A stretch of 64,000 nt of DNA from assembly GCA_019244185.1 (NCBI GenBank), contig JAFATB010000006.1, positions 512,001-576,000 of the forward strand, read 5' to 3'. Source of the DNA: Acidobacteriota bacterium (GTDB taxonomy: Bacteria > Acidobacteriota > Thermoanaerobaculia > Gp7-AA8). Below, piece by piece: positions 14,012 to 58,989 of this stretch. A model generated the notes under the pieces. The model was not told where the DNA came from, searched no databases, and worked only from the letters and a program-made list of their open reading frames with translations. A program made the translations under genes and the position numbers. Numbering within the stretch: the first letter of the stretch is position 1; each line of letters opens with the position of its first letter.

Positions 14012-14059
14012 GCCGTTCGTTCCGCACGATCGGCGTACAATCGCTGCGTCCCCTTCCAA

Positions 14060-21311: not shown

Positions 21312-21325
21312 GACAGCCTGCGGCG

Positions 21326-22677: not shown

Positions 22678-22691
22678 GCGCGTCGTTCTCC

Positions 22692-23522: not shown

Positions 23523-24544
23523 CGTCCTCCGAGCCGCGCGCGCGTGCGCGACCGGATCAGCACGCCGGTGAGGTTGAGCAGGAACGTGAGCCCGAGCAGC
23601 ACGAAGACGGTGCCGTAGAGCAGCGGCTCGGTGGCGTCGACGTCGGGCGACTGCGTCGAGAGGATCAGCACGTGATAGCCGAGGTGCATGAACTGATCGG
23701 TCACGTGATGCGGAAGGAACGGCAGGTAATACGCCGCGCCCGTGAAGAGGATCGGCGCGACTTCGCCCGCGCCGCGCGAGACGCCGAGGATCGCGCCGGT
23801 GAGAATGCCCGGCAGCGACGCCGGCAGCACGATCCGGCGGATCGTTTCCCAACGCGTGGCGCCGAGCGCGAGCGACGCTTCGCGTTGCTCCGGCGGCACG
23901 GTGCGCAGCGCTTCTTCCGTCGCCACGATGACGGTCGGCAGCGTGAGCAGCGCGAGCGTCATCGCCGCCCAGATCAGCGAGCCCTGGCCCCACACGATCT
24001 CGCCCGGCGGCTGCGTCCAGCGATCGAGCGCGCGTCCGACGAACTGGATGAAGAAGCCGAGGCCGAAGAGTCCGAAGACGATCGACGGCACGCCCGCGAG
24101 ATTCGCAACGGCGCTGCGCACGATCGTCGCGAGACCCGCGGACAGCACGCGGCGGAACAGCGCCACGCGTCCCTTCTGCCCTTTCGACGCGGCATAGCGG
24201 CCCCACGCGAGGCGCGGACCTTCGCGAGGCGTGTACTCGTGCAGATAGACCGCGGTCGCGACGCCGAACGGCACCGCGACGATGGTCATCAGCAACACGA
24301 GCGCCGCGGTGCCGACGATCGCGGGATAGATGCCGCCGCCGGTCAGCCCCTCGCGCGGCGGCTGCGTGAGAAACGTCCAGCTGATCTGCCCCGCGCCGCG
24401 CACGGCGACCACGCCGAGGATCACGACGAGAATGCCGAGCGTGAGCAGGATGCTGAAGCCGAGCAGACCGACGAGCAGACGATCCTTCAGCGCGCGGCTG
24501 CGCGCCGTCGCGGGCATGGCGATCAGCGGTTGGGCGACGCTCAC
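23519..24544 (-). CDS. pstA: phosphate ABC transporter permease PstA
   Basis: [40 protein letters not shown]; GTG overlaps the pstC stop. Confidence 0.93.
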
Positions 24545-25491
24545 GCCGCGTCTCCCTGCATCCGCCGGCGCATCTTCGCGATGATCAGATTGCCGAGCGA
24601 GTTGCTGATGAAGGTGATGGCGAAGAGCAGCGTTCCGATGAAGAAGAGCGCCGCGTAGTGCGCGCTCCCGAAGACGACTTCGCCGAGTTCCGCGGCGATC
24701 GTGGCCGAGAGCGTGCGCAGCGGATCGTTGAGGCTGAACGACGCGATCGCGGCGTTGCCGCCCGCCATGAGCAGGATCATCGTCTCGCCGATTGCGCGTC
24801 CGAACGCGAGCACGAACGCGGCGAAGACCGCCGGCACCGCCGCCGGCAGCACGACCTTGATCGCAGTCTGCACGCGCGTCGCGCCGAGCGCCATCGACGC
24901 CTCGCGATAGCCGCGCGGCACCGCCGCCAACCCATCCTCCGAGATCGTGAAGATGATCGGCAGGAGCGCGATGCCGAGCGCGAGCCCCGCGTTGTACGCG
25001 TTGAGGCGATACGTGAAGTGAAACGCCGACTGCAGCCACGACGCGAGCACGAGCAGCGCGAAGAATCCCAGCACAACGGACGGAATCCCGGCCAGCAGTT
25101 CCACCACCGGCTTCACGATCTCGCGCATCCGCCGCGAGGCGAACTCCGACGAGAACAGCGCCGCGGCGACGCCGACCGGACACGCGAAGAGCAGCGCGAT
25201 GAAGGTCGACTTGAACGTGCCGAGGAGCAGCGGAATCATCGACATCTTCGGCTGCTCCGAGGTCGGCTGCCAGACGTAGCGCTCCTCGAAATGCTCGGCC
25301 GGCTTCGCGTTGACGAAGAACTGCGCGAGGTTCGCGTCCTTGCGCACTTCCGGATCGGTGAAGACCGGCAGCGCCTCTTTGAACGTGAAGAGGAAGATCA
25401 GGAAGATGAAGACGATGGCCACGGCGCCGGTCGACGAGAACAGCACCGTCATGAACGCGTCGACCCAGCGGCGCGCGCGGTCGCGGATCAT
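24541..25491 (-). CDS. pstC: phosphate ABC transporter permease PstC
   Basis: [28 protein letters not shown]. Confidence 0.94.
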
Positions 25492-26411
25492 TTGGTCGTC
25501 GTCCCCGCGGTCGAACCGCCGGCGGTGTCGCTGAGCGGGAAGTAGCCGACCTGTTTGACCAGCGCCTGCGCGTCCGGCGTCAGCGTCCAGCGCACGTACT
25601 TCGTCACGCGCTCCGGCGAGTTGTCGAAGGCGTAGTAGAAGAGCTTGCGGCTGAGCGGATACGTGCCGTCGGCGACGGTCGCTTCCGACGGCGCGACGGC
25701 CGGCGTCGCGGCATCTTTACGGAGTGCGATCGCGCGCACGCCTTTGCTGTACGCGATCCCGCCGTATCCGATGCCGTTCGCGTCGCGTCCGACCGCGTTC
25801 ACGATGGCCGCGGTGCCCTGCAGCGTCTGCACGGTCGCGGCGAAGTCCGCCTTCTCCAGCACGTGCTCTCGGAAGTACTCGTACGTGCCGGACGAGTTCT
25901 CGCGGCCGTACAGGATGATCGGCGCGTCCTTGCCGCCGACGTCTTTCCAGTTGCGCGTCTTGCCGGTGAAGATCGCGGCCAGCTGCGGGATGGTCAACTC
26001 CTTGACCGGATTGCCTTCGTTGACGAAGACCGCCAGCGAGTCGAGCGCGACCGGCGTCTCGACGATTTTGCCGCCGCGCGCTTTCTCCGCCGCGGCGCGC
26101 TCTTCGTCTTTCATCGGACGCGACGCCTGCGCGAGGTCGACCGTGCCGTTGATCAGCGCCGCGATGCCGGTGCCCGAACCGCCGCCGTTGACCTGCACGC
26201 GGTCCGCCGGATTGCGCTTCATGTACTCCTCGGTCAGCCGCTGCGTGAGGATGACCATCGTGTCGGAGCCTTTGATCGTGAGCGGGCGCGACGACGCCGA
26301 TGACGTGGACGATGACGTTTGCGCGCTGCCAGCCGGCGTTTCCGAACGCCCGCACGCGACGAGACCTGCGGCGAGAAAAAGAGACAGCGCGAGCCTTGCA
26401 CGACGATTCAA
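25488..26411 (-). CDS. pstS: phosphate-binding protein PstS (lipoprotein copy)
   Basis: KGSDTM, GGGSGTG, ASRP, RENSSGT; lipobox LVAC; TTG at 26411 chosen from GGAGG SD (ATG at 26453 is the alternative). Confidence 0.9.
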   Translation of the reverse strand: MNRRARLALSLFLAAGLVACGRSETPAGSAQTSSSTSSASSRPLTIKGSDTMVILTQRLTEEYMKRNPADRVQVNGGGSGTGIAALINGTVDLAQASRPMKDEERAAAEKARGGKIVETPVALDSLAVFVNEGNPVKELTIPQLAAIFTGKTRNWKDVGGKDAPIILYGRENSSGTYEYFREHVLEKADFAATVQTLQGTAAIVNAVGRDANGIGYGGIAYSKGVRAIALRKDAATPAVAPSEATVADGTYPLSRKLFYYAFDNSPERVTKYVRWTLTPDAQALVKQVGYFPLSDTAGGSTAGTTTK

Positions 26412-26496
26412 ACCAACGACCTCCGAGCGGCGTGATCTTAGGTTTCGGGTCATGAAGAAGCTGAGCGATCGATGTAAATTCGAGGCAAAGCCAGCG

Positions 26497-26528
26497 GCTA
26501 CTTGATCGCTACTTGATCGCTACTTGAC
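26497..26528. repeat. 11-bp tandem repeat GCTACTTGATC x3
   Basis: gctacttgatc gctacttgatc gctacttgac spanning the stop codon of the upstream pstS. Confidence 0.8.
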
Positions 26529-27338
26529 GGGGAAGTAGCCGACGTCGGTGACGACCTTCTGCCCTTCCGCGGAAAGGCACCAGTCGATGAAGCGCTTCGC
26601 ATCGCCGTTCGGCGCCGCGCGCAGGTAGAGGTAGAGATAGCGGCTGATCGGATACTGCCCCGCGCGCACGGTCTCGAGCGTCGGCACGTACGCGGCGCTC
26701 TTGTCGTCCTTCCGAACCTTCGCGAAATGCACGCCTTTCGCGTACGCGGAGCCGCCGTAGCCGATGCCGTTGACGTCCTTCGACACCGCGTTCACGACCG
26801 CGGCCGTGCCCTGCAGCGTCTGCGCGCGCGGCGAGTAGTCCTTGCCCATCAGCACGTTGTCTTTGAAGTAGGTGTACGTGCCGGACGAGTTCTCGCGGCT
26901 GTACAGGATGATCGGCGCGTCCTTGCCGCCGACGTCCTTCCAGTTCGTGATGCGCCCCGTGTAGATGTCGCGCAGCTGCGCGAGCGAGAGCTCCTGCACG
27001 GGGTTCGCCGCGTTGAGATAGATCGCGAGTCCGTCGCGCGCGATGGCGATGCCGACGCCGAGCGTGGCGAAGCGCGCCTTGAGCTTGTCGACCTCCGTCG
27101 ACTTGATCGGACGCGATGCCGCGGCGATGTCGGTCGTGCCGTTGATCAGCGCCGCCAGCCCCACGCCCGAGCCGCCGCCCGTGACCTGGATCTGCGCCTC
27201 GGGGTTCTTGCGCATGAATGTCTCGGCGAGCTTCGCGTTCATGATGACCATCGTGTCGGAGCCTTTGATCGTGACCGGCTTCGCGGCGAACGCCGAGCCG
27301 GCGGCGAGCAGGAGAAGTGCGATGAATGTTTTCTTCAT
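26520..27338 (-). CDS. pstS: phosphate-binding protein PstS (periplasmic copy)
   Basis: Sec signal MKKTFIALLLLAAGSAFA; KGSDTM, GGGSGVG, RENSSGT. Confidence 0.92.
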   Translation of the reverse strand: MKKTFIALLLLAAGSAFAAKPVTIKGSDTMVIMNAKLAETFMRKNPEAQIQVTGGGSGVGLAALINGTTDIAAASRPIKSTEVDKLKARFATLGVGIAIARDGLAIYLNAANPVQELSLAQLRDIYTGRITNWKDVGGKDAPIILYSRENSSGTYTYFKDNVLMGKDYSPRAQTLQGTAAVVNAVSKDVNGIGYGGSAYAKGVHFAKVRKDDKSAAYVPTLETVRAGQYPISRYLYLYLRAAPNGDAKRFIDWCLSAEGQKVVTDVGYFPVK

Positions 27339-27349: not shown

Positions 27350-28561
27350 TTAGAACTTGTACGCGTAGCGGAGGGTGAAGACGTTGTCGTCGGGATCGGC
27401 GAAGCCGCGCGTCTTCAGCCGCTCGTACGCGACCATGATTTTGCTGTTCTCGTCCCAGTGAAAAATGTAGGAGCCGCCGAGCGTGGCCACCTTCGCGTTC
27501 GCGGCGACGTGCGGCAGGTCGTGGCCGGAGTCGGGGTCGTACGCGTCGTAGCGAACCGCGAATTGGTGGTACGTGCCGACGTTTTGGATCGCGTAGAGGT
27601 AGTAGCCGGTGACGTCCGCCGCGAGCGCCGCGTTCGCGGCCGCGTTGGGCAGGGGCGGCTGTTTGCCGCGGATGTACTCGCCGCGCAATCCGAGTCCGCG
27701 GATCGGCGTCACGAGCTGAAAGTCGATCCCCTCGCGCTGCTTCGCGAACTCCTGCCCCGCGGTGTTCGACGCGACGGAGACGAGCTCCGCGCCGCGATAC
27801 CACGACACGCCGACGTCGAGCGGGCCGAACGAGCCGCCGACGCGGCCGACGAAGTCCTTGCGCTTGTTGAAGTCGAACGTCTGCAGCGTGCCGGTGCCGT
27901 TGACCAATGCGGCCTTGTAGTTGAAGCGGTCGCCGAATCCGAGGCCGGAGAGCTGCACGCCGCGGTCGCGTTCGGACGGAAACAGCGTCCGCGTGACGCG
28001 CGCGCGTTCCGGCAATTCGCGATCGCTCGACGAGTACGCGATCTCGAAGCCGAACGGCCAGTTGAACTGACCGGCCGTGACGGTGTGATGCCACTGCGTC
28101 CACGGCTCGGTGAACTCGACGTAACCGTCTTTTAGCGAAACGCCGGACGTCGCGACTTCCGGCTGCAGCACGAAGCGCGACGTCGGAGTGAGCTGATACG
28201 TGAACTTCACGCGCGCCTCGCGCACGGAGAACTGGTCTTTGTTGCGCGTCGCCGCGGCGCTGCTCAGCGCGTTGACCGACGACTCGTCATTGACGTACTG
28301 CGCGAGGATGTAGCCGGTGATGCGCATCTTCGAGAGCGCATCGACGCTGTTGTGCATCTCGGTGAACGCTTCCGTGAGCGCGTCGAGCTTGCTCGCCGTT
28401 TCCTCGAGCGTCGGCGCCGGCGGCTGCGCTGCCTCGGCTTCCTGCTGCGGCTGCGGCTGCGGTTCTTCCGTCGACGGCGGCGCGGGCGGAGTTTCCTGCG
28501 CACGCGCGGACAGGGTCACCAGTCCCACACCGAGGCAGAGAATCGCCATGACTCGTTTCAT
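27350..28561 (-). CDS. phosphate-selective porin (OprO/OprP-like)
   Basis: Signal peptide, coiled segment, GQFNWPFGFE..SSSDRELPER, RDRGV, C-terminal aromatic YKF; first gene of the pst operon. Confidence 0.8.
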   Translation of the reverse strand: MKRVMAILCLGVGLVTLSARAQETPPAPPSTEEPQPQPQQEAEAAQPPAPTLEETASKLDALTEAFTEMHNSVDALSKMRITGYILAQYVNDESSVNALSSAAATRNKDQFSVREARVKFTYQLTPTSRFVLQPEVATSGVSLKDGYVEFTEPWTQWHHTVTAGQFNWPFGFEIAYSSSDRELPERARVTRTLFPSERDRGVQLSGLGFGDRFNYKAALVNGTGTLQTFDFNKRKDFVGRVGGSFGPLDVGVSWYRGAELVSVASNTAGQEFAKQREGIDFQLVTPIRGLGLRGEYIRGKQPPLPNAAANAALAADVTGYYLYAIQNVGTYHQFAVRYDAYDPDSGHDLPHVAANAKVATLGGSYIFHWDENSKIMVAYERLKTRGFADPDDNVFTLRYAYKF

Positions 28562-28600: not shown

Positions 28601-28656
28601 AGTCTAGGAGTCGCGGTGTGAAGGAATCTCGGGAGTCGTGTAAAGAGCGGGTAAAG
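28601..28656 (-). promoter_or_regulatory. candidate Pho-box array plus -10 element for the porin-pst operon
   Basis: Minus strand CTTTACCC, CTTTACAC and CTTCACAC in 11-bp register (28649, 28638, 28616), then TAGACT 9 nt downstream. Confidence 0.6.
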
Positions 28657-29566
28657 AACAGGCGAAGGGCTCGCGGGCCGCGTCCGCGCAAACGGCGCGC
28701 TCGCGGGCCGCTTCTTCCGGCTTTTGCAGAGAGTCGAGAGCGTCGGCGAGGGCGAGGCGCGCGCGCGTGCACAGAGGATCGAGTTGCAAGGCGCGGCGAA
28801 GGCAGGACTCGCTTTTCCGTGAATCCGACTCGAGCAGCGCGACGAGGCCGAGCGCGGCCCACGCGTCGGCGAGCATGCGGTCGCGGCGCAGTGCCGCGGT
28901 GGCGGCTTCGGTGACGCTCGCGAGCTCGCGCGCATCGCGCCGCCCGTCGGCGATCAGCAGTGCGAGCGCGAACGCGCGCGCGGCCGCGGCGGAGACGAGC
29001 ATCGGCGCGAGCACCGCCGCGCGCTCGTACAGGCGCGCGGCGCGCGGCAGCGCATCATCGGCGCCGAACCAGTCGAGCGAGCGCGCCGCGGCGTACGCGC
29101 AGAAGGCGTCCCACGCGTGCGCGGACGCCGGCGCAAGACGCCGGCCGATGCTGCCGCCGCGCACGATCGCGTCGCACACGCGCTCGGCGATGCCGCGCGC
29201 GACGTGCAGGATGTCGTGGCAGTGCACCGCGTAGCGATCCGTCCACAGCTCGCGTTCGGTCAGCGGATCGACGAGCAGCGCGACCACGGTGAGCGCGTCG
29301 CCTTCGACGTGCAGCGTGCCGGTGAGCACCGCGTCGACGCCGGAGCGGCGGCCGACTTCTTCCGGCGTGTCGTCGCAGGGCGCGAGCGACTGGCGGCCGG
29401 GCACGACGCGCAGCGATGCGACGCCGCGCAGCTGCTCGATGAGCAGCACCGCGAAGCCGAACCCGAGCTCGTCGTTCGTATCGGCTGAATCAAAACGGGC
29501 GACGGCCACCGACGTCACGTGCAGGCACGCGTTCGACATCGATGGCCGCCGCCGGGGGAGTCGCAT
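28604..29566 (-). CDS. TolB-N-like plus TPR protein (divergent)
   Basis: SVAVARF..., EVGRRSGVDAVLTGTL, LWTDRY, RRALQLDP resemble the TolB_N-TPR module of kinases and cyclases; ATG directly follows the upstream TAA. Confidence 0.6.
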   Translation of the reverse strand: MRLPRRRPSMSNACLHVTSVAVARFDSADTNDELGFGFAVLLIEQLRGVASLRVVPGRQSLAPCDDTPEEVGRRSGVDAVLTGTLHVEGDALTVVALLVDPLTERELWTDRYAVHCHDILHVARGIAERVCDAIVRGGSIGRRLAPASAHAWDAFCAYAAARSLDWFGADDALPRAARLYERAAVLAPMLVSAAAARAFALALLIADGRRDARELASVTEAATAALRRDRMLADAWAALGLVALLESDSRKSESCLRRALQLDPLCTRARLALADALDSLQKPEEAARERAVCADAAREPFACSLPALYTTPEIPSHRDS

Positions 29567-30634
29567 TTACTGGTTGAGCACCGCGTCGCCGGTCACGTTG
29601 TCCGTGACGGCGCCGTAGACGAGGAGCGGCCCCGTGGCCGACCAGGTGATGAAGTAGTCGTCCTGCGTCTGGCTCGCGGTCGGCACGCTGGAGATCAGCG
29701 AGAACGCCGGCTGCTGCGTCATCGCGTAGCCGGGAATCGTGATCGTGTCGCTGCCGAGGATCACGCCGTTCGCGGCGTGCGCGACGAACGTCGCGGTGAC
29801 CGCGGTCGCGCCCGGGTTGAAGTAGCCGACGTTCGTGCGGTAGTCGGCATTGCTCGAGAGGAACGAGATCGTGCCGCTGGTGTCGCCGGCCGGCTGCGCG
29901 CTGTACGAGAACCCGGCGGTGCCGTGGCCCGCGGCGCGCTGGTCGTTGATGACGCGCGCGCTGACGTCGACGTTCTGGTCGGACGTGATGCGCAGGCCAC
30001 CGAGACCGCTGGTGATGCCGAGCGTCGTGCCGGCCATGTCGTTGAGCACCTTCTGCTCGCCCGGCACGACCGTGATCGTCTTCGTGACCGTCGGTGCGCC
30101 GTTGCCCTCCGCGCTCTGCGCGAAGTAGTCGAGCGTCACGTTGGCGACGCTGCCGCCGTTGTTGACGATGCGCATGTCGGTGACGAAGTTCGTGTTGTTG
30201 ATGCCGCCGACCTTACCGACCACCGGCATGTACGAGACGCGCGAGCCTTCGCCTTCCGTCGAGCGCGCGAGCGGGCCGATGAGCGCGCCGTTCGGGAACT
30301 CGCTCGTGCGGATCTTGATCGCGTAACCAAAGGGATTGGCTGCGATCTGATTCGCGAGCGTCGTGGAGATCGTCGTGGTGCCGTTCGACAGCGTGGCCGG
30401 GTTCAGCGACACGACCGAGTTCTCGGACGCGTCGACGATGTCGGCCTGCGTCACGGTGGCGGTGTTCTGCGTGAGCACCGAGTAGTGCAGCGTCGTGCCG
30501 TCGATGGTGATGACGGCGAAACCGCTGCCGCTGGCGCCGCCGATGGGGGTGAGGATGGCGCTGAAGGAGGTCGCGGCGAACGCGGCGACCGGCATCAGCA
30601 CGAGCAGGAACAGCAATGCAGTGAGGCGTTTCAT
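29567..30634 (-). CDS. secreted CHRD-domain protein with C-terminal beta-rich domain
   Basis: Signal peptide; FSAILT..GSGFAVIT..IAANPFGYAIKIRTSEFPNGALIGPL is CHRD-like; then GGINNTNFVTDMRIVN...YRTNVG...DNVTGD. Confidence 0.7.
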   Translation of the reverse strand: MKRLTALLFLLVLMPVAAFAATSFSAILTPIGGASGSGFAVITIDGTTLHYSVLTQNTATVTQADIVDASENSVVSLNPATLSNGTTTISTTLANQIAANPFGYAIKIRTSEFPNGALIGPLARSTEGEGSRVSYMPVVGKVGGINNTNFVTDMRIVNNGGSVANVTLDYFAQSAEGNGAPTVTKTITVVPGEQKVLNDMAGTTLGITSGLGGLRITSDQNVDVSARVINDQRAAGHGTAGFSYSAQPAGDTSGTISFLSSNADYRTNVGYFNPGATAVTATFVAHAANGVILGSDTITIPGYAMTQQPAFSLISSVPTASQTQDDYFITWSATGPLLVYGAVTDNVTGDAVLNQ

Positions 30635-30655
30635 CGTGATGTCTCCTCGGATGTC

Positions 30656-32482
30656 CTAGTTGTCGGAGAAGTTCGCCCAGCCGCTGAGGATCCAGTTGTC
30701 GCCGGGTCCGACGGCGCCGAGGTAGTCGACCGCCTCGAAGAAACCGTTGTCCGGCGGATAGGCGACGTAGTCGGCGTCGAGCGCGGGCGAGTTCGGGAGC
30801 GGCGTGAGGTCCGGCATGTACGTCCTCACGCGCGTCGGCGTGCCCATCGCGAGCATCGGGTCGACGTTGCGGTTGTACTTGTTGACGTTGAAGATGAAGT
30901 TGCGCGAGTCGGGACCGTCCGTGCGGCCGGGGAACGCGGCGTCCGAGAAGTCGCCGAAGAGAATGGAGTTGTCGAAGATCAGCGTGCCGTTGTTGCCGTT
31001 GCTGATCGTGGCCGCGTCGCGGATGTTGACCGGCGCGAGCTTGGTGCCTTCGACGATGGCGTTGTAGTACGCGCCGGCCGTGTTGCGGCGCAGCACCGCG
31101 CCGTAGTTGCCGGTGGCGCTGGCGACGCGGACGCTGGTGACGTTGTAGACGTGCTGGTTCGACAGCGGCGTATTGGCGCTGCCGTTGGCGTCGTTGTCGG
31201 CCTCGGTCAGCGTGTTCGAATCCGCCTCGTCGTTCTCCGGACGCTTGATGAACGCGGCGAACTGCACGTGCGCCTGGTTGCCGTTGTCGAAGTCGAGCGC
31301 GTCGTCGGCGCAGGCGATGCCGAGGATGTGCTTCGCGTTGGCCGTGCCGCCGAACCACTCGACACAGTCGTCCTTGTTGTGCAGCACCTCGATGTAGTCG
31401 ATGACCGTGCCGCTGCCGACGCCGCCGAGGGTGAGGCCGTTGATCTCCTGGTTCGTGGCGATCTCGAAGCCGCCGAACTCGAGGCGCACGTAGCGCAGCA
31501 CCCCCGAGGAGTCCGTCGCGTTCGCACCGCCGTACGAATACTGCGGCTGGCTGGGAAGACCTTCGAGGAACGCCTGGCCGCCCGGCACGTTGATCGGCGC
31601 GTCGCCGAGGAGCACGAGCGAGCCCCAGTCCTTCTGCGCGCGCGAGCCGACCTTCTGCGCGGAGGTCATGATGATCGGACGCTTGGCGGTGCCTTCGGCC
31701 ATGATCTTCGCGCCGCGCTGGATGAAGAGCGTCGCGCGGCCGTCGCCGCCGTAGACGACCGTGCCCGGATCGATGGTGAGCACCGCCGGCGCGGCCACGC
31801 CGACGTAGTCGTGCAGCACGTAGCGCTTGTCCGCCGTCCAGTGCTGCGAGGCCGTGATCTGGCCGCTCACGTTGACGGTCTCGTTGACGTACGAGTACAT
31901 CGCATTCGAGCGCGAGAGCACGCGCTTGCCGGCCGCGTCGCGCAGCTCGAAGACGAACTGATAGAGGCCGGTCTGGCCGCTCGGCACCGCGATCGACGCG
32001 CCGAGCACGCCGCTCACGCCCCAGCTGAGCGGCGCGCCGTCGGCCGTGCCGAACAGCACGAAGTCATTGAGCGAGGGGACGAACACGGGCACGGGCGCGC
32101 CCGCGGTGCCGAAGAGGTCGGCCTGCACGCCGGCGGCGAGAGGCGCGCCGCTGACGTTGTAGTAGCGGCGCTCGCCGGTGGTGCGGTTCTCGTTGTAGAG
32201 ATACATCGTCACCGGCGCGCCGAAGCCGTTCGGGTCGACGGTGACGCGCAGCTGCAGCGGCTCGCCGGGGTTGAAGGTGTAGTAGTTGGTCTCGAGCAGC
32301 GCGATCGGACGCGCGCCGGTCGTGTCGGTGGCATTCGCCTCCACGATGGCGCGGTCGAACGACGCGGCCGACACCGGCGCGCGGCGCACCCACTGCGTGG
32401 CCCGATCGATGCGCGCGATCTCGCGCGCCTGCGCGGCCGCGCCGAGCAGGCCGATGGCCAGAATCACCAGGATCCTCTTCAT
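30656..32482 (-). CDS. secreted parallel beta-helix protein associated with a TonB receptor
   Basis: Signal peptide; LTIDPGT, AEGTAKRPIIMTS, WGSLVLLGDAP, DSSGVLRYVRLEFGG, EINGLTLGGVGSGT, DDCVEWFGG. Confidence 0.8.
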   Translation of the reverse strand: MKRILVILAIGLLGAAAQAREIARIDRATQWVRRAPVSAASFDRAIVEANATDTTGARPIALLETNYYTFNPGEPLQLRVTVDPNGFGAPVTMYLYNENRTTGERRYYNVSGAPLAAGVQADLFGTAGAPVPVFVPSLNDFVLFGTADGAPLSWGVSGVLGASIAVPSGQTGLYQFVFELRDAAGKRVLSRSNAMYSYVNETVNVSGQITASQHWTADKRYVLHDYVGVAAPAVLTIDPGTVVYGGDGRATLFIQRGAKIMAEGTAKRPIIMTSAQKVGSRAQKDWGSLVLLGDAPINVPGGQAFLEGLPSQPQYSYGGANATDSSGVLRYVRLEFGGFEIATNQEINGLTLGGVGSGTVIDYIEVLHNKDDCVEWFGGTANAKHILGIACADDALDFDNGNQAHVQFAAFIKRPENDEADSNTLTEADNDANGSANTPLSNQHVYNVTSVRVASATGNYGAVLRRNTAGAYYNAIVEGTKLAPVNIRDAATISNGNNGTLIFDNSILFGDFSDAAFPGRTDGPDSRNFIFNVNKYNRNVDPMLAMGTPTRVRTYMPDLTPLPNSPALDADYVAYPPDNGFFEAVDYLGAVGPGDNWILSGWANFSDN

Positions 32483-32520
32483 GAACTTCCTCCTATTGGT
32501 CGTTACGTGAAACGGTGGGA

Positions 32521-35298
32521 CTAGAACGGCGTGTAGCTGAGGCTGAGGGAGACTTTGCGGCCGGGGTCGAAGCTGCGCTGGATCTGCCCGCCCTGCACGA
32601 ACTCGCGCTTCGCGTCCAGCAGGTTCGTCGCGGCGAGTTTCACTTCCAGACCCCGCGCGAGCGCGCCGAAGCTCTGCGAGAGCACGACGTCGAACGTCGT
32701 CGACGCCGACTCGTACGTGTCCGGCAGGCCGAACGCGCCGACTTCCGTCAGACGCTTGCCGCCGTACGCGCCGAGGATGCGGAACATCGTGCCCCACTGC
32801 GGGTGATAGAACTGGAGCGCGAGGTTGGCGACGTCGTCCGACTGCCCTTCGAGCGGACGATTCGTGTTCGTGACGACGGAGAACTGATGCTCGCCGACGT
32901 CGACTTGCGACTGGATGTGCGCGTAGTTCGCGTTGACGGACCAGAGCCGCAGCGCCGGCAGGAGCGATTCGAGCGACCGGCGGAACTCGAGCTCGACGCC
33001 GTAGAGGTTCGCGCTGTCGGCGTTGACGAACGACTGGCGGAAGTCGCTGGTCGGCTGCACGATGCGCTCGATCGGCGAGTCGATGCGCTTGTAGAACGCG
33101 CTCGCCGCGACCACTTCGCCCGGCGTCGGGAACGCTTCCCAACGCACGTCGTAGCTGTCGAGGATGGCCTGCTGCAGATCCGGATTGCCGGAGATCGAGC
33201 GGCCGCCCGCGACTTCCGTGAACGTGAACGGGCTGAGCTCGCGGAACTCCGGACGATTCACCGAACGCCCGTACGCGAAGCGCAGATTCATCCGCTCCGC
33301 GAGCTCGTACACGACGTTGAGCGACGGCAGGATGTTGTTGTTGTCGTGGATCGAGTCGACGGTCGAGTCGACCGCGAACGGATCGAAGGTCGAGACGCGC
33401 TGCTTCGAGCTCTCGTAGCGCGCGCCGCCGATGACGCGCCATTTGCCGAACGTGAAGTCTTCCATCGCGTACGCGGCGTCGACGGTGTGCTCGGCGTCGT
33501 AGGCGTCGTTGACGCCGGTGGTCTCGCGGATCTCGAAGCCGTTCGGACGGATGTTCGCGGCGGTGTAGATCTCGTCCGGCGTCTGCGTGAGATCGAACTG
33601 CTGGAAGTTCGACGTGACGAAGCGAAAGCGCCGCGCCGCGAAGTCGCGCGTCCGCTTCTGCCAGTCGATGCCGCCCTTCACGCTGCCGGACCAGCTGCCT
33701 TCGGGCTTGGCGAAGAAGACCGAGTACGCGGCGCCCGCCTGATTCACCTCATCGTCGAGGTTGAAGTACTCGAGCTTGCCGGAGTCCGCGAAGCCGGTCT
33801 GCATCTGGAAGACGCCGGGATCGGACTCGCGGTAGATGTTCTCGCGCAGGTCGGAGTCGTTCGATGCCGTCGAATGCGCGACGCTCCACTCGACCAGGCT
33901 GCCCATGCCCGGGCCGCCGAGGTTGTGGTCGCCGCGCAGGCGCGTCGAGAGCACCTGCTCGAGCTGGTAGCGCACGCGGAAGTCCTGGATGTCGCCGCCG
34001 GAGTTCGTCTGCAGGCCTTCCTGGAAACGATCTTCGGACGCCGCGTCGCGCGTGAGCACGGAGCTGAGGTAGATGCGGTTCTGATCGTTGAGGCGGTACG
34101 AGAGATTGCCGACGAAGCCGCTGGTCGCGCTCTCGCGGTTCGTGGTGAGGTCGTAGTCGTTGAACGCGACGAGCTCGTTGTTCGCGTCGAGGCCGAAGTA
34201 GCGCTGCTGTTCGTCGATCGTGTTGTAGCCGTGGTTCGAGACGCCGGAGACGACCACGCCGAGCCGGCCGAACGTGTTGCCGTACGTCAGCGCGTAATCG
34301 GTCGCGGGCGGCGCGGACTTCGTGTCGCTGCCGGTCCACTGTCCGACGAAGAGCTGGCCGATCTGCTGCAGCTCCTGCGGCGTGAAGCCGTTCGGATTGA
34401 GGATGCTCGCGCGCTGCAGGAACTCCGACGGCACGCCGGCGGGCAGTTCCTGTCCGCCGTTGCCGAGGCGCGAGAGGCCGCCCGCGTACGTGCGGAAATG
34501 CTCGCCCGTCGTGCCGCTCTGGTAGCCGGTGCCGACAGTGAACTTGAGCGACTGCGCGCCGGGGAACTGCGTGGTGACCATCTCGACGACGCCGCTGCCG
34601 AAGTCGCCCGGCTTGTCGGGCGTGTACGTCTTGACGACGTTGACGGAGTCGAGGAGCTTCGCCGGAAAGAGATCGAGCGGCACGACGCGCTTTTCCGTTT
34701 CGGTGGTCGGCACGGTCGAGCCGTTGATGGTCGTGCCGCTGTAACGCTCGCCGAGTCCGCGCACGAAGACGTACTTGTCGCCGAGGAGCGTGACGCCGGT
34801 GAGGCGCTCGACGACGCCGGCGGCGCTGGAGTCGGGCGTCTTCTTGATCTCTTCCGCGGAGATCGAGTCGCTCACGACGGGCGCTTCGCGGCGGCTCTCG
34901 AGGATCGCCACCTCGCCGGTCTTCTCGCCCTGCGCGACGACTTCGACGGTCTCGCCGAACGCCGGCACGACCGTGAACGCGACGTCGAGTTTCTGGCCGG
35001 TGGTGAGCTTGAGATGCTTCGACACCGGCTTGAAGCCGTCGAGCGCGGTCTCGATGACGTAGTCCCCCGGCGCGAGGTTGGCGATGCGGAACTCGCCGTG
35101 CGCGCCGCTGACCTCCACTTTCGCCGACGACGCGTCGCCCGCTTTCGTCGCCGTGACGGTCACGCCCGGGACGGCCGCGCCGTCGGAATCACGCACCACG
35201 CCCGCCACCACCGCACCCCCGCCGGCTTGCGCAAACAGTGAGGTCGGAATCAGAAACACGACGAGCAGCAGGAGCGAACGAAAGCGCGAAACGAACAT
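32521..35298 (-). CDS. TonB-dependent receptor with N-terminal carboxypeptidase-regulatory-like domain
   Basis: Signal peptide; VAGVVRDSDGAAVPGVTV, plug motifs FVRGLGERY and VVPLDLFP, GNPDL, NLLD, C-terminal YTPF. Confidence 0.93.
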   Translation of the reverse strand: MFVSRFRSLLLLVVFLIPTSLFAQAGGGAVVAGVVRDSDGAAVPGVTVTATKAGDASSAKVEVSGAHGEFRIANLAPGDYVIETALDGFKPVSKHLKLTTGQKLDVAFTVVPAFGETVEVVAQGEKTGEVAILESRREAPVVSDSISAEEIKKTPDSSAAGVVERLTGVTLLGDKYVFVRGLGERYSGTTINGSTVPTTETEKRVVPLDLFPAKLLDSVNVVKTYTPDKPGDFGSGVVEMVTTQFPGAQSLKFTVGTGYQSGTTGEHFRTYAGGLSRLGNGGQELPAGVPSEFLQRASILNPNGFTPQELQQIGQLFVGQWTGSDTKSAPPATDYALTYGNTFGRLGVVVSGVSNHGYNTIDEQQRYFGLDANNELVAFNDYDLTTNRESATSGFVGNLSYRLNDQNRIYLSSVLTRDAASEDRFQEGLQTNSGGDIQDFRVRYQLEQVLSTRLRGDHNLGGPGMGSLVEWSVAHSTASNDSDLRENIYRESDPGVFQMQTGFADSGKLEYFNLDDEVNQAGAAYSVFFAKPEGSWSGSVKGGIDWQKRTRDFAARRFRFVTSNFQQFDLTQTPDEIYTAANIRPNGFEIRETTGVNDAYDAEHTVDAAYAMEDFTFGKWRVIGGARYESSKQRVSTFDPFAVDSTVDSIHDNNNILPSLNVVYELAERMNLRFAYGRSVNRPEFRELSPFTFTEVAGGRSISGNPDLQQAILDSYDVRWEAFPTPGEVVAASAFYKRIDSPIERIVQPTSDFRQSFVNADSANLYGVELEFRRSLESLLPALRLWSVNANYAHIQSQVDVGEHQFSVVTNTNRPLEGQSDDVANLALQFYHPQWGTMFRILGAYGGKRLTEVGAFGLPDTYESASTTFDVVLSQSFGALARGLEVKLAATNLLDAKREFVQGGQIQRSFDPGRKVSLSLSYTPF

Positions 35299-35304
35299 GC
35301 GCGG

Positions 35305-35370
35305 ACTATAGAAACCGCGCGAAAACCGGTCCGCCGCGTGCCGTGAAGTCGACGTAAAGTTCTCGTGCAG
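35305..35370 (-). promoter_or_regulatory. candidate Pho-box array plus -10 element for the TonB receptor operon
   Basis: Minus strand CTGCACGA, CTTTACGT, CTTCACGG at 11-bp spacing (35363, 35352, 35341); TATAGT 6 nt before the ATG. Confidence 0.55.
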
Positions 35371-35433: not shown

Positions 35434-36138
35434 ATGAAACGACTCCTCGTGCTCGTGGTCCTCGCGGCGGCGCTCCCGCTCGCCGCCGCCGAACCGCCGC
35501 TGACGAATCAGGACATCGTCGAGATGACGAAAGCGGGACTCTCGGCCGAGACGATCGTCGCGAAGATCCGCCACAGCGAGGTCGCCTTTCACACCGACTC
35601 GCAGATGCTGATCGAGCTCGTCGGCGACGGCGTGGCCGACGCGGTGATCCGCGCGATGATCGAGCAGCAGGACGCGCAGTCGCACGCGTCGACGCACATC
35701 GCGACGACGCCTGCGCAGCCGCAGCCGGCGACGCCAGCCGCATCGCCCGCGAAACCCATGACGGCGCCGGCGCCAGTCACCACCGCGACGCCCGCGTCCG
35801 CGCCCGCGCCGGCGCCGGCGCCGCGCACCCGCAAGAAGCACAAACGCATCGACGAGGTCTCCGTCGCCACCGACGGAGGCGGACGCTGCGATCACGCGAC
35901 GCTCGATCTGTCGTCGACCGGCCTCAAGACCACCGGCTGCCACGAGACGGACGTCGACGTGGCGTGGAAGGACGTGCAGTCCGTCTGCTACGTCTACTCG
36001 TTCCGCAGCACGCTCGTCATCGGCACCGCGAACGGCGAGCGCCGCATCTACACGAGCAGCCCCGCGGAGCTGAAAGCGCTGCACGATTCGATTCGCGCGT
36101 TCGCGCCTGGCACGCGTGAGGAATCATCGTGTCACTGA
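35434..36138 (+). CDS. secreted hypothetical protein (helical N-domain, Pro/Ala linker, PH-like C-domain)
   Basis: Signal peptide; LTNQDIVEMTKAGLSAETIVAKI motif; stop 1 bp before ppx. Confidence 0.7.
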   Translation: MKRLLVLVVLAAALPLAAAEPPLTNQDIVEMTKAGLSAETIVAKIRHSEVAFHTDSQMLIELVGDGVADAVIRAMIEQQDAQSHASTHIATTPAQPQPATPAASPAKPMTAPAPVTTATPASAPAPAPAPRTRKKHKRIDEVSVATDGGGRCDHATLDLSSTGLKTTGCHETDVDVAWKDVQSVCYVYSFRSTLVIGTANGERRIYTSSPAELKALHDSIRAFAPGTREESSCH

Positions 36139-36139
36139 C

Positions 36140-37672
36140 ATGACCGACCGACCGAAGAAGCTCGCCGCGATCGACGTCGGGACGAACTCGATCCACATGA
36201 TCGTGGCCGAGGCGCGCGAAGGCGCGAGGTATCGCGTCGTCGACCGCGAGAAGGAGATGGTGCAGCTCGGCCTGGCCAGCCTCGGCGGACAACCGCTCAC
36301 CGACGCCGCCATGGACCGCGCCGTCACCGCGCTCGCGCGCATGAGCGGCATCGCCAAGCGCTGGAGCGTCGACGAGCTGCACGCCGTCGCCACGAGCGCC
36401 GTGCGCGAAGCGCCGAACCGGCGCGACTTTCTGAAGCGCGTCCGCGACGAGACCGGCATCAAGCTGCGCGTCATTTCCGGCGAGGAAGAAGCGGACTACA
36501 TCTACCGCGCCGTGCGCGGCGCCGTCGACATCGGCGAGAGCACCGCGCTCTGCATCGACATCGGCGGCGGCAGCACGGAGTTCATCGTCGGCACCGAAGA
36601 CGAGGTGTTCTTCACCGCGAGCGAACGACTCGGCTCGCTGCGCCTCGCGCAGCAGTTCTCGCTCATCGACCGCGTGCCGCAGGCATCGATCGACGCGTGC
36701 CGCCGCCACGTGCACGAGCGCGCCGCGCGCATCGCCAAACGCATCCGGCGCATCGGCATCGACATGACCATCGGCACGTCCGGCACGATCCAGGCGCTGG
36801 CCGCGATCTGCTGCGGCGACGCGGACGCGGGCGCGCACGGACTCAAGCCACTCTCGCACGCGCGCCTCGCCGCGATCCTTCCAGAGCTCGCGCCGATGAC
36901 CGCCGCCGAACGCGCCGCGCGCTTCAATGTCGACGAGAAACGCGCGGCCACACTCGTCGGCGGCGCGATCGCCATCGACGAGTTCCTCACGCTTCTCGGC
37001 GTGCCGTCGCTGCTCGCCTGTCCCGTCGCCATGCGCGAGGGCATCATCGAGAGCCGCGTCTCGCAGCTCGCGCGCACGTCGAAGGCGGGCGGCTCGCTGC
37101 GCCGGCGTTCCGTGCTGACGATGGCGCAGCGCACCGAATGCGACCTTCGCCACGCGAACCACGTCGCGCGCCTAGCGCTGCGCATCTTCGATCAGCTCCC
37201 CGCCGTGCACGGTCTCAACGGCGACGCGCGCGAGCTCCTGCAGTACGCGGCGCTGCTGCACGAGAGCGGCCTGCACATCAGCGACCGCGGTCACCACAAG
37301 CACACCTACTATTTGATTCGTCACGGCGACCTGCGCGGCTTCACGGACGAGCAGCTGATCGTGCTCGCGAACGTCGCGCGCTACTACCGCAAGGCACCGC
37401 CGCGCGGCGCCGACGCGAACTTCCTCGAGCTGAGCGACGAGCAGCGCCAGCGCGTGCAGCGCCTCGCCGCCATCCTGCGCATCGCCGAAGGTCTCGACCG
37501 CGGCCACCGGCAGCGCGTGCGCGACGTCGCCGTCGAGGTGCGCAAGCAGGCCGTGCGCTTCACCGCGCGCACGCGCGCCAGCGCCGACGTCGAGCTGACC
37601 AGCGCCGAGAAACGCGCGAAGTATTTCGCGTCGCTCTTCGAGAAACGCGTCGAATTCGACACGGTCGCGTAA
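36140..37672 (+). CDS. ppx: Ppx/GppA exopolyphosphatase with C-terminal HD domain
   Basis: AAIDVGTNSIH, ATSAVREAPN, ISGEEEA, DIGGGSTE, MREG, ALLHESG..HHKH. Confidence 0.92.
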   Translation: MTDRPKKLAAIDVGTNSIHMIVAEAREGARYRVVDREKEMVQLGLASLGGQPLTDAAMDRAVTALARMSGIAKRWSVDELHAVATSAVREAPNRRDFLKRVRDETGIKLRVISGEEEADYIYRAVRGAVDIGESTALCIDIGGGSTEFIVGTEDEVFFTASERLGSLRLAQQFSLIDRVPQASIDACRRHVHERAARIAKRIRRIGIDMTIGTSGTIQALAAICCGDADAGAHGLKPLSHARLAAILPELAPMTAAERAARFNVDEKRAATLVGGAIAIDEFLTLLGVPSLLACPVAMREGIIESRVSQLARTSKAGGSLRRRSVLTMAQRTECDLRHANHVARLALRIFDQLPAVHGLNGDARELLQYAALLHESGLHISDRGHHKHTYYLIRHGDLRGFTDEQLIVLANVARYYRKAPPRGADANFLELSDEQRQRVQRLAAILRIAEGLDRGHRQRVRDVAVEVRKQAVRFTARTRASADVELTSAEKRAKYFASLFEKRVEFDTVA

Positions 37673-37782: not shown

Positions 37783-39501
37783 ATGCCGCTTTCCATCGCC
37801 GCGAACCCGGTCGTCGACCATCTCACCGGCGTCCACACGCTCTCGCGCTTCTACGACACGCTGCCGCGCGAACAGGCCACGCCGTTTCTCGAGACCGTGC
37901 GCCGCGAGCTCGGCCTGGCCTGCACGGTTTCCGATGACGACCTCGCGCGCATTCCGCGCACTGGACCGGTCGTCGTCGTGGCGAACCATCCGTTCGGCGC
38001 GGCGGAAGGGATCGTCCTCGCCCGCATCCTCGGCAGCGTTCGCACCGACGTGCGCGTGCTCGCGAATCAACTGCTCGGCCGCATCCCCGAACTGCGCGAC
38101 GACTTCATCCTCGTCGATCCGTTTCACGCGACGCCGAACGCGACCAACATCCGCGGCCTGCGCCACGCGCTCGCGCACGTCGCGCGCGGCGGCATGCTGG
38201 CCGTCTTTCCCGCCGGCACCGTCTCGCATCTGCAGCTCGACCGCATGACCGTCGACGATGCGCGCTGGTCGCCGAACATCGCGCGGCTCGTGCGCCGCAC
38301 GAAAGCCACGGTCTTGCCGGTCTACTTCCCGGGCACGAACGGCCCGCTGTTCCAGCTCGCCGGGCTGCTGCATCCCGCGCTGCGCACCGCGCTCCTGCCG
38401 CACGCGCTGCTCGACCGCCGGCACACGCGCATGGAGATGCGCATCGGGCGGCCGATCGAATGGTCGCGGCTCGCGCATCTCGACGATGACGACGCGCTCA
38501 TCCTCCACCTGCGCCGCCGCACGTACGTGCTGCGCCATCGCGACGCCCACGCGCCGCACAACGCCGCCGCGCAGCACGACGCCGTGCCGAAGCCGCGCGG
38601 CCCGCGCGCGCCGATCGCGCCTCCGCGTCCGTCGCGGATGCTCGCGCGCGAAGTCTCGGCGCTGCCGGCGCTCGCATCGAGCGGCGCGCTCGACGTCTTC
38701 GTCGCCAGCGCCGATCGCATCCCGAACGTACTGCAGGAAATCGGACGCCTGCGCGAGCTCACGTTCCGCGACGCCGGCGAAGGCACCGGCAACGCGAGCG
38801 ATCTCGACGCTTTCGACAGCTACTACCAGCATCTCTTCCTCTGGAACCGCGACCGCGAGGAAGTCGCCGGCGCGTATCGCCTCGGCGTGGTCGCGCCGAT
38901 CCTCGGCAAGTACGGCATCGGCGGCCTCTACACCTCCACGCTCTTCCGCTACAAGGCGGAGTTCTTCCGGCAGCTCGGCCGCAACGCCGTGGAGCTCGGC
39001 CGGTCGTGGATCCGCGCCGAATACCAGAAGAGCTACGCGCCGCTGCTGCTGCTCTGGAAAGGCATCGGCGCGTTCGTCGTCGCCAATCCCGACGCGTGCG
39101 TCCTCTTCGGTCCGGCGAGCATCTCGAACGAATACGAGGCGTCGTCGCGCGCGCTCATGGCGCGCTATCTCACCGACGACGTGCACGCGCGCGACCTCGC
39201 CGCGCACGTGCGGCCGCGCGCGCCGTTCCGCCTGCCCGCCTGCGAGCGCGCCGCCGACTTCGACGAGCTGCAGGAGCTCCTGCTCGAGATCGAGAACGGA
39301 CGCCGCGGCGTGCCCGTGCTGCTGCGCCAGTATCTGAACATCGGCGCGCGCGTGGCCGCGCTGAACGTCGACCGCAACTTCAGCGACGTCCTCGACGCGC
39401 TCGTCGTCGTCGACCTGCGCACGACGCCCGACAAAACGCTCGCCCGCTATCTCACCGCCGAAGGAGCGCGTGCGTTTCGCGCGCACCACCAGCGGTCATG
39501 A
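37783..39501 (+). CDS. PlsC-like O-acyltransferase fused to OlsB-like GNAT N-acyltransferase (OlsF-like aminolipid synthase)
   Basis: VVANHPFGAAEG and FPAG (acyltransferase); EIGRLRELTFR, DLDAFD, GAYR, ELGRS, LLWKGI, PVLLRQY (GNAT); SD GGAGG. Confidence 0.85.
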   Translation: MPLSIAANPVVDHLTGVHTLSRFYDTLPREQATPFLETVRRELGLACTVSDDDLARIPRTGPVVVVANHPFGAAEGIVLARILGSVRTDVRVLANQLLGRIPELRDDFILVDPFHATPNATNIRGLRHALAHVARGGMLAVFPAGTVSHLQLDRMTVDDARWSPNIARLVRRTKATVLPVYFPGTNGPLFQLAGLLHPALRTALLPHALLDRRHTRMEMRIGRPIEWSRLAHLDDDDALILHLRRRTYVLRHRDAHAPHNAAAQHDAVPKPRGPRAPIAPPRPSRMLAREVSALPALASSGALDVFVASADRIPNVLQEIGRLRELTFRDAGEGTGNASDLDAFDSYYQHLFLWNRDREEVAGAYRLGVVAPILGKYGIGGLYTSTLFRYKAEFFRQLGRNAVELGRSWIRAEYQKSYAPLLLLWKGIGAFVVANPDACVLFGPASISNEYEASSRALMARYLTDDVHARDLAAHVRPRAPFRLPACERAADFDELQELLLEIENGRRGVPVLLRQYLNIGARVAALNVDRNFSDVLDALVVVDLRTTPDKTLARYLTAEGARAFRAHHQRS

Positions 39502-40337: not shown

Positions 40338-40377
40338 CGCGCGCACGGAACGTGCTTCGTTCGCGGGCACGACGGCC

Positions 40378-41022: not shown

Positions 41023-41034
41023 AGCATCGCGCGC

Positions 41035-43269: not shown

Positions 43270-43401
43270 CCCTCGCATTATGGCCCACGGCGCGTACAGC
43301 GCGTGTAAAGCGGACCTGGAGCGCGTGTCATTTCGGAATGCATGCCGATCTTTCGGTTCCCTTAACGACCTTGCGCCGCGATTCGTGTTATCGGTGTACG
43401 G

Positions 43402-58917: not shown

Positions 58918-58989
58918 GGGGAACGGCCCCGCACGATCGGTACCACCGTGGCGGCCAACATGCATGATCCGCGCTGCTACCATCGCGTC

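Follow-up and report, generated by a model that had tools for sequence, protein, structure and literature searches.

A TonB-dependent transporter and its secreted beta-helix partner in an acidobacterium: a probable phosphate-controlled uptake module of the ElpS, FII and BT4056 type

We analysed a 64,000-nucleotide stretch of the genome of an Acidobacteriota bacterium (Thermoanaerobaculia; GenBank assembly GCA_019244185.1, contig JAFATB010000006.1, positions 512,001 to 576,000), hereafter the window, in which a TonB-dependent transporter (TBDT) and a secreted right-handed beta-helix protein are encoded side by side upstream of a porin-pst operon. These two proteins probably constitute an outer-membrane uptake module that is under phosphate (Pho) control and is of the type represented by ElpS, FII and BT4056. 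The anatomy of the genes, the fold and family of the beta-helix protein, its conserved pairing with the transporter, and a rare repeat shared with phosphate genes are all observed here. The pair is part of a string of four genes, among which only the TBDT and the beta-helix protein are general. The genome that contains the window is 5.3 Mb in size and has a G+C content of 68%, and those relatives of its proteins that carry names are from Thermoanaerobaculia.

Results

A string of four genes upstream of a porin-pst operon

A preliminary description of the window, made from its letters, had proposed that four tightly linked and co-oriented genes lie upstream of the porin-pst genes. This is borne out, since all four are on the minus strand and coding in the frames given below (third-position GC of 0.86-0.96), and the gaps from TBDT to beta-helix, CHRD, TPR and porin genes, taken from the coordinates, are 38, 21, 0 and 42 nt. 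In the direction of transcription, the genes and the repeat arrays associated with them are as follows.

35343-35370, minus strand: three phased hexamers, CTGCAC-N5-CTTTAC-N5-CTTCAC, 45-72 nt upstream of the TBDT start
32521-35298, minus strand: TBDT, 925 aa, with a signal peptide, a CarboxypepD_reg domain, a TonB-box-like ETVEVVA, a plug and a barrel of the 22-strand type
30656-32482, minus strand: secreted beta-helix protein, 608 aa, with a Sec signal peptide, an N-terminal beta-sandwich, a right-handed beta-helix and a C-terminal cap
29567-30634, minus strand: secreted CHRD protein, 355 aa, with CHRD at residues 22-126 and beta domains like Anabaena sensory rhodopsin transducer (ASRT) and TM1070 at residues 128-249 and 249-350
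28604-29566, minus strand: orphan TolB-like/TPR protein, 320 aa (or 311 aa), without a signal peptide or DNA-binding domain
28640-28667, minus strand: three phased hexamers, CTTCGC-N5-CTTTAC-N5-CTTTAC, inside the 3′ end of the TPR gene and 79-106 nt upstream of the porin start

The start of the TBDT gene was assigned to the ATG at 35298 because this codon yields a signal peptide, whereas a GTG near 35370 would place the upstream repeat inside the gene. The encoded protein matches the Plug domain (39.7 bits), the TonB_dep_Rec barrel (117 bits) and CarboxypepD_reg. Residues 116-122 read ETVEVVA, which is similar to the TonB-box consensus, and V120 within this segment is invariant across 19 orthologues. 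The best NCBIfam match is TIGR01782 (TonB-Xanth-Caul), whose score of 246.7 bits is below the cut-off of 310 and which also scored under the cut-off in the genome search. No PDB sequence matched the transporter at E<=0.001. A siderophore receptor was rejected, as the best NCBIfam matches of that kind reach 19-33 bits against cut-offs above 900, and a SusD-like partner was likewise rejected, there being none at the locus.

The transporter and the beta-helix protein are encoded together across phyla

TBDT orthologues that lie beside a beta-helix gene in other genomes align with the window protein over its full length at 26-74% identity. Among the 201 sampled genomes of Acidobacteriota, 30 contain a match to the beta-helix protein, counting the present genome and two that are unpublished, while the four further genomes from the family of the present organism contain none. 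An orthologous TBDT (35-40% identity, full length) adjoins the beta-helix gene in 20 of 20 acidobacterial loci, or in 19 of 19 when the unpublished G049 is left aside, and it is the first gene of the two in 18 of the 20. The same arrangement is common elsewhere. A sample of 78 other named loci, drawn from Bacteroidota, Ignavibacteriota, Myxococcota, Bdellovibrionota, Gammaproteobacteria, Spirochaetales and Acidobacteriota, includes 64 with an adjoining TBDT homologue, 58 of which cover at least half of the transporter, and several of the remaining 14 loci end at a contig edge. Matches to the beta-helix protein occur in 37 of the 401 genomes sampled from Pseudomonadota, where all 20 loci have the TBDT next to the beta-helix gene, and this is also true of four of four metagenome loci. 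A Parabacteroides member encoded beside a TBDT matches the window protein at 3e-61, and the names attached to relatives of a Parabacteroides homologue are those of Parabacteroides, Tannerellaceae and Coprobacter. Members are plentiful in gut Bacteroidales and in marine bacteria. Within the present genome the beta-helix gene is single-copy, and its start is preceded by AGGAGG.

At one of the loci carrying the pair, that of Chryseobacterium sp. POE27 (L129), a response-regulator gene divergent from the TBDT and beta-helix genes (14028-14558) appears split. Its receiver domain stands alone in an open reading frame (ORF) of 176 aa, and tblastn returns the gene in two pieces.

A beta-helix fold with an invariant set of acidic residues

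No match to the 608-aa protein was obtained in a Pfam/NCBIfam scan with a model set that did not include PF28492. The precomputed label PF28492 (PF28492.1) is attached to this protein and to all of its best 120 homologues, and ESM Atlas also reports PF28492, there named Beta_helix_4 and described as a 'pectate-lyase like beta helix'. The Pfam entry is very recent, and no mention of it was found in the literature searched. The family is nevertheless large, with 6022 cluster representatives matching at E<=1e-3. Many members contain 2-6 tandem copies of a unit of ~400 residues, and many carry tails of the type IX secretion system (T9SS) or Big_2, TIG, fn3 and PKD domains.

An AlphaFold model of the protein (24 sequences), with a predicted local distance difference test score (pLDDT) of 88.7 and a predicted template modelling score of 0.88, consists of a beta-sandwich at residues ~57-200, a right-handed beta-helix at ~201-545 and a cap. 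On this model, the right-handed beta-helix fold is certain. Exhaustive structural alignment returned dozens of right-handed beta-helix proteins at Z 17-21, over 240-315 residues and with 5-14% identity. They include phage tailspike depolymerases, Pel9A (Z 21.3, 302 residues aligned), PL6 and alginate lyases/epimerases, NosD, GH28, phi29 gp12 (Z 18.7) and the adhesin PfbA. Because enzyme families and non-enzymes such as NosD and PfbA are tied at this level of identity, function is not readable from the fold. Searches for closer relatives of solved structure gave nothing at E<=0.001 when the model was compared with the PDB by Foldseek, a single chance-level match (E 0.26) when the protein was compared with PDB sequences by phmmer, and no match at E<=10 when the family profile was used against the same sequences.

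When 18 members representing six or more phyla are aligned, the invariant core consists of W286-G287, E307, G318-G319, D324/S326/G327, E346, D371/D372/E375/F377-G379, D393/D394/D397 and E427. Ten acidic residues and no basic residue are invariant in these 18 sequences, and R465 varies among proteins from loci laid out like that of ElpS (see below). The motifs DSSG, EING, DDCVEWFGG, DDALDFD and EADND, to which the preliminary description had drawn attention, are all present in the translation and correspond to this invariant core, and the extra N-terminal beta domain that it had noted is the beta-sandwich that precedes the helix in the model. The acidic residues appear in the model to occupy the equivalent short strand of successive turns, forming what would be a ladder on one face of the helix. 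Judged from the sequence, this ladder may be a divalent-metal site.

Relationship to ElpS, FII and BT4056

The preliminary description had pointed to a resemblance to ElpS of Caulobacter, and this proved sound. The order beta-helix lipoprotein, TBDT, ~2 kb, secretin and GspE, which is the elpS type of layout, is found in 5 of the 20 Pseudomonadota loci. The beta-helix proteins of these five loci are lipoproteins of 489-522 aa and match the window protein in BLASTP comparisons with E from 9e-29 to 5e-40. According to Le Blastier et al. (2010, PMC2996285), ElpS (CC0170) is a ~50-kDa lipoprotein with no recognised domain, encoded beside the TBDT CC0171 and immediately before gspC-N. Cells starved of phosphate produce ElpS, which is exposed at the surface and then released, and its over-expression raises alkaline phosphatase activity in the supernatant.

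Two further published pairs are of the same kind. The 'PhoBR operon' of Flavobacterium johnsoniae, also designated PUSIV, comprises OprP (Fjoh_0542), PhoRB (Fjoh_0543-0544), the TBDT Fjoh_0545 and the lipoprotein FII (Fjoh_0546), which has a pectin-lyase fold (IPR011050). Lidbury et al. (2020, PMC8115612) found that few genes respond to depletion of inorganic phosphate (Pi) with as strong an induction as those for the TBDT and FII, whereas limitation for N and for Fe leaves these loci tightly repressed; FI, FII and FIII share 31-36% identity with ElpS at 50-54% coverage. BT4056 is described by Price and Arkin (bioRxiv 10.1101/2023.03.17.533168) as an ElpS homologue of the pectin-lyase superfamily that is 40% identical to Fjoh_0546 and paired with the TBDT BT4055. 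The proximity of the two genes is kept in 621 genera, and BT4056 was proposed to serve as a 'lid' of the TBDT. A September 2026 preprint (bioRxiv 10.64898/2026.09.03.749221) states that no function could yet be assigned to Pus3 and Pus4, which have distinct surface proteins.

Given the relatives with the ElpS layout and these published pairs, the window pair very probably belongs to the described ElpS/FII/BT4056 family. This placement is based on synteny, on the domain family and on the statements of the papers cited. The suggestion in the preliminary description that the system was undescribed must consequently be abandoned, as phosphate-starvation induction and TBDT pairing for ElpS, FII and BT4056 are already in print. 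Both induction by phosphate starvation and surface exposure have been demonstrated in print for relatives.

The window locus resembles each of the known systems in some respects and differs from it in others. As with ElpS and CC0171, a secreted or surface protein is encoded beside its own TBDT (production on phosphate starvation being the feature of ElpS), and relatives of the window protein occupy the same layout of lipoprotein, TBDT and type II secretion system (T2SS) genes. However, ElpS is a lipoprotein that is released by a T2SS-dependent protease, whereas the window protein lacks a lipobox and has an extra N-terminal beta-sandwich of 140 residues. In addition, the window gene order is reversed, with the TBDT first, and the locus has no adjoining T2SS genes but a CHRD gene that follows instead. 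Fjoh_0545 and Fjoh_0546 correspond to the window genes in that a TBDT with a CarboxypepD_reg-type N-terminus precedes a pectin-lyase-fold protein, in that both are clustered with porin O/P and phoBR (the Flavobacterium cluster being induced on Pi depletion), and in that the cluster has further secreted proteins of unknown role. In contrast to the window partner, FII is a lipoprotein; moreover, the accessory in Flavobacterium is the CARDB lipoprotein Fjoh_0549 rather than a CHRD/ASRT-like protein, and the window locus also adjoins a full pstSCAB-phoU set.

BT4055 and BT4056 likewise combine a non-SusC TBDT with a protein of the pectin-lyase superfamily, and their conserved proximity across hundreds of genera is reproduced by the present sampling. 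BT4056 differs in being a lipoprotein of ~455 aa without the N-terminal domain, and its role as a lid is itself a prediction from few confident contacts. In systems of the SusCD type, including PusCD (bioRxiv 10.64898/2026.09.03.749221), a surface binder also passes its ligand to a TBDT, and the Pus loci are Pho-controlled, but the binder there is a SusD-like helical protein and not a beta-helix.

Phased repeats and phosphate control

Phased direct repeats with an 11-bp period precede the TBDT gene, the porin-pst operon and the polyphosphate kinase gene ppk1 of the window. In their phasing and their TT(T/C)AC core they resemble the PhoB/PhoP boxes of other bacteria. The window contains 6 occurrences of CTTYAC-N5-CTTYAC with at most one mismatch where 0.33 would be expected, and none of 100 shuffles gave as many. 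Exact copies number only 3 in the 5.3-Mb genome, including one before the TBDT and one before the porin, and a copy with one mismatch is located 16 nt before ppk1. A Pho-box-like promoter had been claimed earlier; the array in question, at 28640-28667 before the porin, is real, and the second array, before the TBDT, had gone unnoticed. The repeat is a clear candidate for the Pho box of Thermoanaerobaculia, and PhoB would be expected to bind the repeats of the window.

The repeats were also sought in relatives. Among three close relatives from metagenomes (63-73% identity), CTTTAC-N5-CTTCAC is present ~30-60 nt before the TBDT in two of the three and in a degenerate form in the third. Only 3 of 20 other acidobacterial TBDT pairs have CTTYAC-N5-CTTYAC with at most one mismatch upstream. 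The looser pattern TT[ACT]A[CT]-N6-TT[ACT]A[CT] has 14 matches in 8 of these 20 upstream regions, compared with an average of 0.19 and never more than 2 over 300 dinucleotide shuffles and with 9 matches in the remaining 375 kb of those loci, but because the pattern was derived from the window these counts are supporting evidence rather than proof.

Genes for phosphate acquisition and sensing recur beside the pair. Within the flanks analysed, pst, phoU, ppx or porin genes were found at 8 of the 78 loci (within 6 kb) and at 5 of 20 loci, and a PhoB/PhoR-like pair at 9 of the 78 and 5 of 20. The Arsukibacterium pair is positioned exactly between pstCAB-porin and phoB-phoR, and the PhoR encoded there carries PF11808. 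The rare repeat shared by the TBDT, porin-pst and ppk1 promoters, together with these recurrent Pho neighbours in other phyla, speaks for the phosphorus-scavenging role that had been put forward in the preliminary description.

The third exact copy of the repeat is found on another contig (C3, ~76988-77004, plus strand; positions 2989-3005 of locus L131), within a stretch of ~770 nt flanked by genes for a class-V aminotransferase and a poly(A) polymerase-like protein. A loose repeat scan also brought out a conserved 19-nt string, CGTTCTGCGTTCTTCATTC, that recurs at no fewer than seven sites in the genome.

Sites of CGTTCTGCGTTCTTCATTC, as contig and position: C2:243385, C5:118546, C6:344245, C7:297858, C13:43935, C13:49065, C23:109849

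Features of the acidobacterial form

The signal peptide of the window beta-helix protein contains no Cys, and hence there is no lipobox. A lipobox-like match is present in 1 of 24 full-length homologues of the acidobacterial type and is doubtful, lying inside the hydrophobic core, whereas all five ElpS-layout proteins have a lipobox. The N-terminal beta-sandwich was found only in acidobacterial members. The genome encodes ATPases of the T2SS or type IV pilus type and two secretins, and this machinery could carry the beta-helix protein across the outer membrane.

The CHRD domain (PF07452) is recognised marginally in the third protein of the string, at 24.4 bits against a gathering cut-off of 24.1, and more clearly in an orthologue from locus L051, which is 55% identical and scores 73.3 bits. 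A CHRD gene comes after the beta-helix gene in L051, L053, L190, L191 and L192, and in none of the other loci. A model of the protein (pLDDT 80.6) has three domains. The CHRD domain is predicted to be a sandwich like that of Cu,Zn superoxide dismutase (Z 8-10), the second domain is like TM1070 (Z 13.6, with 112 of 116 residues aligned), and the third resembles ASRT (Z 10.4). The tandem ASRT/TM1070-like module of ~225 residues (residues 128-355, window 29567-30265) has no covering model in the Pfam set scanned. It recurs in 12 other large ORFs of the genome, where it is found at the ends or in the interior of ORFs of up to 2117 aa, and in Acidobacteriota it stands behind PKD, multihaem cytochrome, GH32 and other N-terminal domains. 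The literature searched that couples the CHRD domain with phosphate contained nothing relevant to bacteria. In L053 (2721-3782 and 4032-6391), from a member of the Sulfomarinibacteraceae, the CHRD-like gene is in two frames, reflecting a frameshift or a sequencing error, and is followed by genes for an M28 peptidase, PstS and a porin.

The fourth gene has a different standing. All TPR matches of its product are below the Pfam cut-offs, and it has only four close homologues. Its distant relatives are regulators composed of winged helix-turn-helix, TolB-like and TPR parts (JGI name 'TolB-like protein/TPR'), but the DNA-binding domain of these relatives is lacking, as are a membrane segment and a signal peptide. 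The gene was not found by tblastn in 102 related loci, and from its sequence appears to be an orphan outside the conserved unit, possibly a remnant. Of the two accessories named in the preliminary description, CHRD can therefore be retained for close acidobacterial relatives only, and the TPR protein cannot.

Neighbouring genes

The remaining features of the locus are listed here. The names from pstS to phoR (20091-27338) are those that we take to be correct from recognising each family in the translation rather than from a profile scan, and the same proteins served as tblastn queries against related loci.

27350-28561, minus strand: phosphate-selective porin O/P-like protein (Porin_O_P, 35.7 bits), at the head of the porin-pstS-pstS-pstCAB-phoU-phoBR string
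26520-27338, minus strand: pstS
25488-26453, minus strand: second pstS
24541-25491, minus strand: pstC
23519-24517, minus strand: pstA
22692-23522, minus strand: pstB
22006-22677, minus strand: phoU
21326-22009, minus strand: phoB
20091-21311, minus strand: phoR
35434-36138, plus strand: secreted protein of 234 aa with a Pro/Ala-rich linker and no family match
36116-37672, plus strand: exopolyphosphatase gene ppx, divergent from the TBDT
41035-43278, minus strand: polyphosphate kinase gene ppk1, with the one-mismatch repeat copy at 43294-43310, 16 nt upstream of the ORF

The last 23 nt of the gene for the 234-aa protein coincide with the start of ppx. A divergent region of 135 bp, which contains the repeat array, is common to the TBDT gene and to the unit formed by the 234-aa gene and ppx. 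The TBDT locus lies within a more extensive phosphate-starvation island, which also takes in window positions 37783-43310. The plus strand at 37783-39501 encodes a bifunctional protein with acyltransferase and GNAT (Acetyltransf_5) parts, a layout like that of OlsF, the ornithine-lipid synthase. A Metallophos_2 phosphoesterase is encoded at 40378-41022 (plus strand), and Metallophos_2 is the Pfam family given for PlcP of Flavobacterium in PMC8115612. Elsewhere in the window, 57934-63000 (plus strand) encodes a 1688-aa fusion of a CheB methylesterase, a CheR methyltransferase, several PAS domains and a histidine kinase.

Discussion

The arrangement of the window suggests how the pair might act. 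When phosphate is scarce, PhoB, which is encoded 11 kb downstream, would bind the phased CTTYAC repeats and switch on the TBDT-beta-helix-CHRD(-TPR) transcript and, by means of the second array, the porin-pst operon. The Sec signal peptide would direct export of the beta-helix protein, which would reach the cell surface or the medium. There, the acidic ladder (E346, D371/D372/E375, D393/D394/D397 and E427) may hold a divalent metal, through which the protein may bind, and perhaps cleave, an anionic molecule that bears phosphorus. The partner TBDT would import the ligand with TonB energy, and phosphate freed in the periplasm would be taken up by PstS-PstCAB. The CHRD/ASRT-TM1070-like protein, a third secreted protein that is all-beta, belongs to the conserved unit in this lineage. 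For the window pair, we infer PhoB binding, metal binding, the identity of the ligand as a phosphorus-bearing anion, and import.

Several observations weigh against this proposal. Phosphatase activity was absent from refolded as well as immunoprecipitated ElpS, and deletion of elpS left alkaline phosphatase activity in the supernatant unchanged (PMC2996285). AlphaFold-Multimer gave few confident contacts between BT4055 and BT4056 (bioRxiv 10.1101/2023.03.17.533168). The family link between the window protein and ElpS, Fjoh_0546 and BT4056 is drawn from synteny, domain family and published statements. Since the window partner is not a lipoprotein, its retention at the surface is only putative. 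With regard to regulation, no Pho box of Acidobacteriota is experimentally defined, and the repeat pattern was taken from the window itself before being relaxed; the looser form has no match in 12 of the 20 other acidobacterial loci, and no RNA runs carrying the window stretch were found for this organism. The third exact copy of the repeat has no recognisable ORF downstream; it may indicate a small gene, or an RNA, that is controlled in the same way. Finally, 62 of the 78 loci in other phyla have no Pho gene within the flanks, and no pst or porin gene lies downstream in the close relatives L191 (7.9 kb) and L192 (3.1 kb). The emphasis that had been placed on a direct link to pst is thus not sustained, as this adjacency is not kept in L191 and L192.

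The main rival to a binding partner is an enzyme. It is possible, although we consider it the less probable course, that the beta-helix protein is not a passive binder or lid but an extracellular enzyme, a lyase, hydrolase or phosphodiesterase that depends on metal and breaks down a polymer rich in phosphate (teichoic acid, polyphosphate, extracellular DNA or phosphoglycan) into pieces for import by the TBDT. The fold is common to polysaccharide lyases, hydrolases and phage depolymerases (Pel9A, PL6, GH28, phi29 gp12), and beta-helix enzymes carry their active sites on consecutive turns, just where the invariant acidic ladder would be. Many relatives with 2-6 tandem copies or T9SS tails look like secreted enzymes, and ElpS is released into the medium (PMC2996285). 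However, an enzyme of this kind is difficult to reconcile with the lack of any invariant basic residue, R465 itself varying in the ElpS-layout proteins, and with a family profile that matches no solved enzyme sequence (0 at E<=10). Moreover, many families score equally well in the structural comparison, all at 5-14% identity, and therefore no catalytic machinery can be transferred to the protein, nor is an activity reported for any member in the literature consulted.

The two other explanations concern the ligand. That the pair takes up carbohydrate for carbon, in the manner of the sugar importers of Xanthomonas and Caulobacter, with an incidental link to phosphate, is very unlikely. Such a role would suit the pectin-lyase-like fold, the absence of a Pho gene from the flanks of most loci in other phyla, and TIGR01782 as best NCBIfam match of the TBDT, but at 246.7 bits this match is below the cut-off of 310. 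Furthermore, the TBDT promoter has its rare repeat in common with the porin-pst and ppk1 promoters, and Pho genes beside the pair (8 of 78 within 6 kb) are far above chance for one pst operon per genome. The Flavobacterium genes are induced on Pi depletion and repressed under N and Fe limitation (PMC8115612), and induction was seen in Caulobacter as well (PMC2996285). It is also highly improbable that the acidic ladder instead captures a metal or a metal phosphate (Ca, Fe or lanthanide phosphate) at a mineral surface for import by the TBDT. TBDTs typically import metal chelates, and ten invariant acidic residues without an invariant basic one would be appropriate to such a site; in addition, DNA of this organism is present in rock, root and rhizosphere metagenomes, of which three full-share ones may be the source sample. 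Nevertheless, no metal-regulation signal or metal-handling gene was seen among the scanned neighbours (the 234-aa gene being without a family), and the gut Bacteroidales and marine bacteria that are rich in the family live where mineral phosphate is no obvious source.

A Pho-controlled uptake module thus remains our preferred description of the window pair. The TBDT/beta-helix pair is among the most widespread phosphate-starvation modules of Gram-negative bacteria. The present analysis contributes an acidobacterial form in which the partner would be retained differently and a third protein is conserved, a clear candidate for the Pho box of Thermoanaerobaculia, and a set of family-wide invariant acidic residues that can guide mutagenesis. 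A more elaborate possibility, which we regard as doubtful, is that Acidobacteriota have a three-part machine in which the TBDT is joined by an unanchored beta-helix protein that docks through its N-terminal beta-sandwich and by the CHRD/ASRT-like protein as a second ligand-binding subunit, with the ladder as a metal-dependent site that binds and cuts a phosphodiester polymer (teichoic acid, polyphosphate or extracellular DNA, for example). If this were true, the system of this organism could disclose the substrate that has long been sought for a family present in hundreds of genera.

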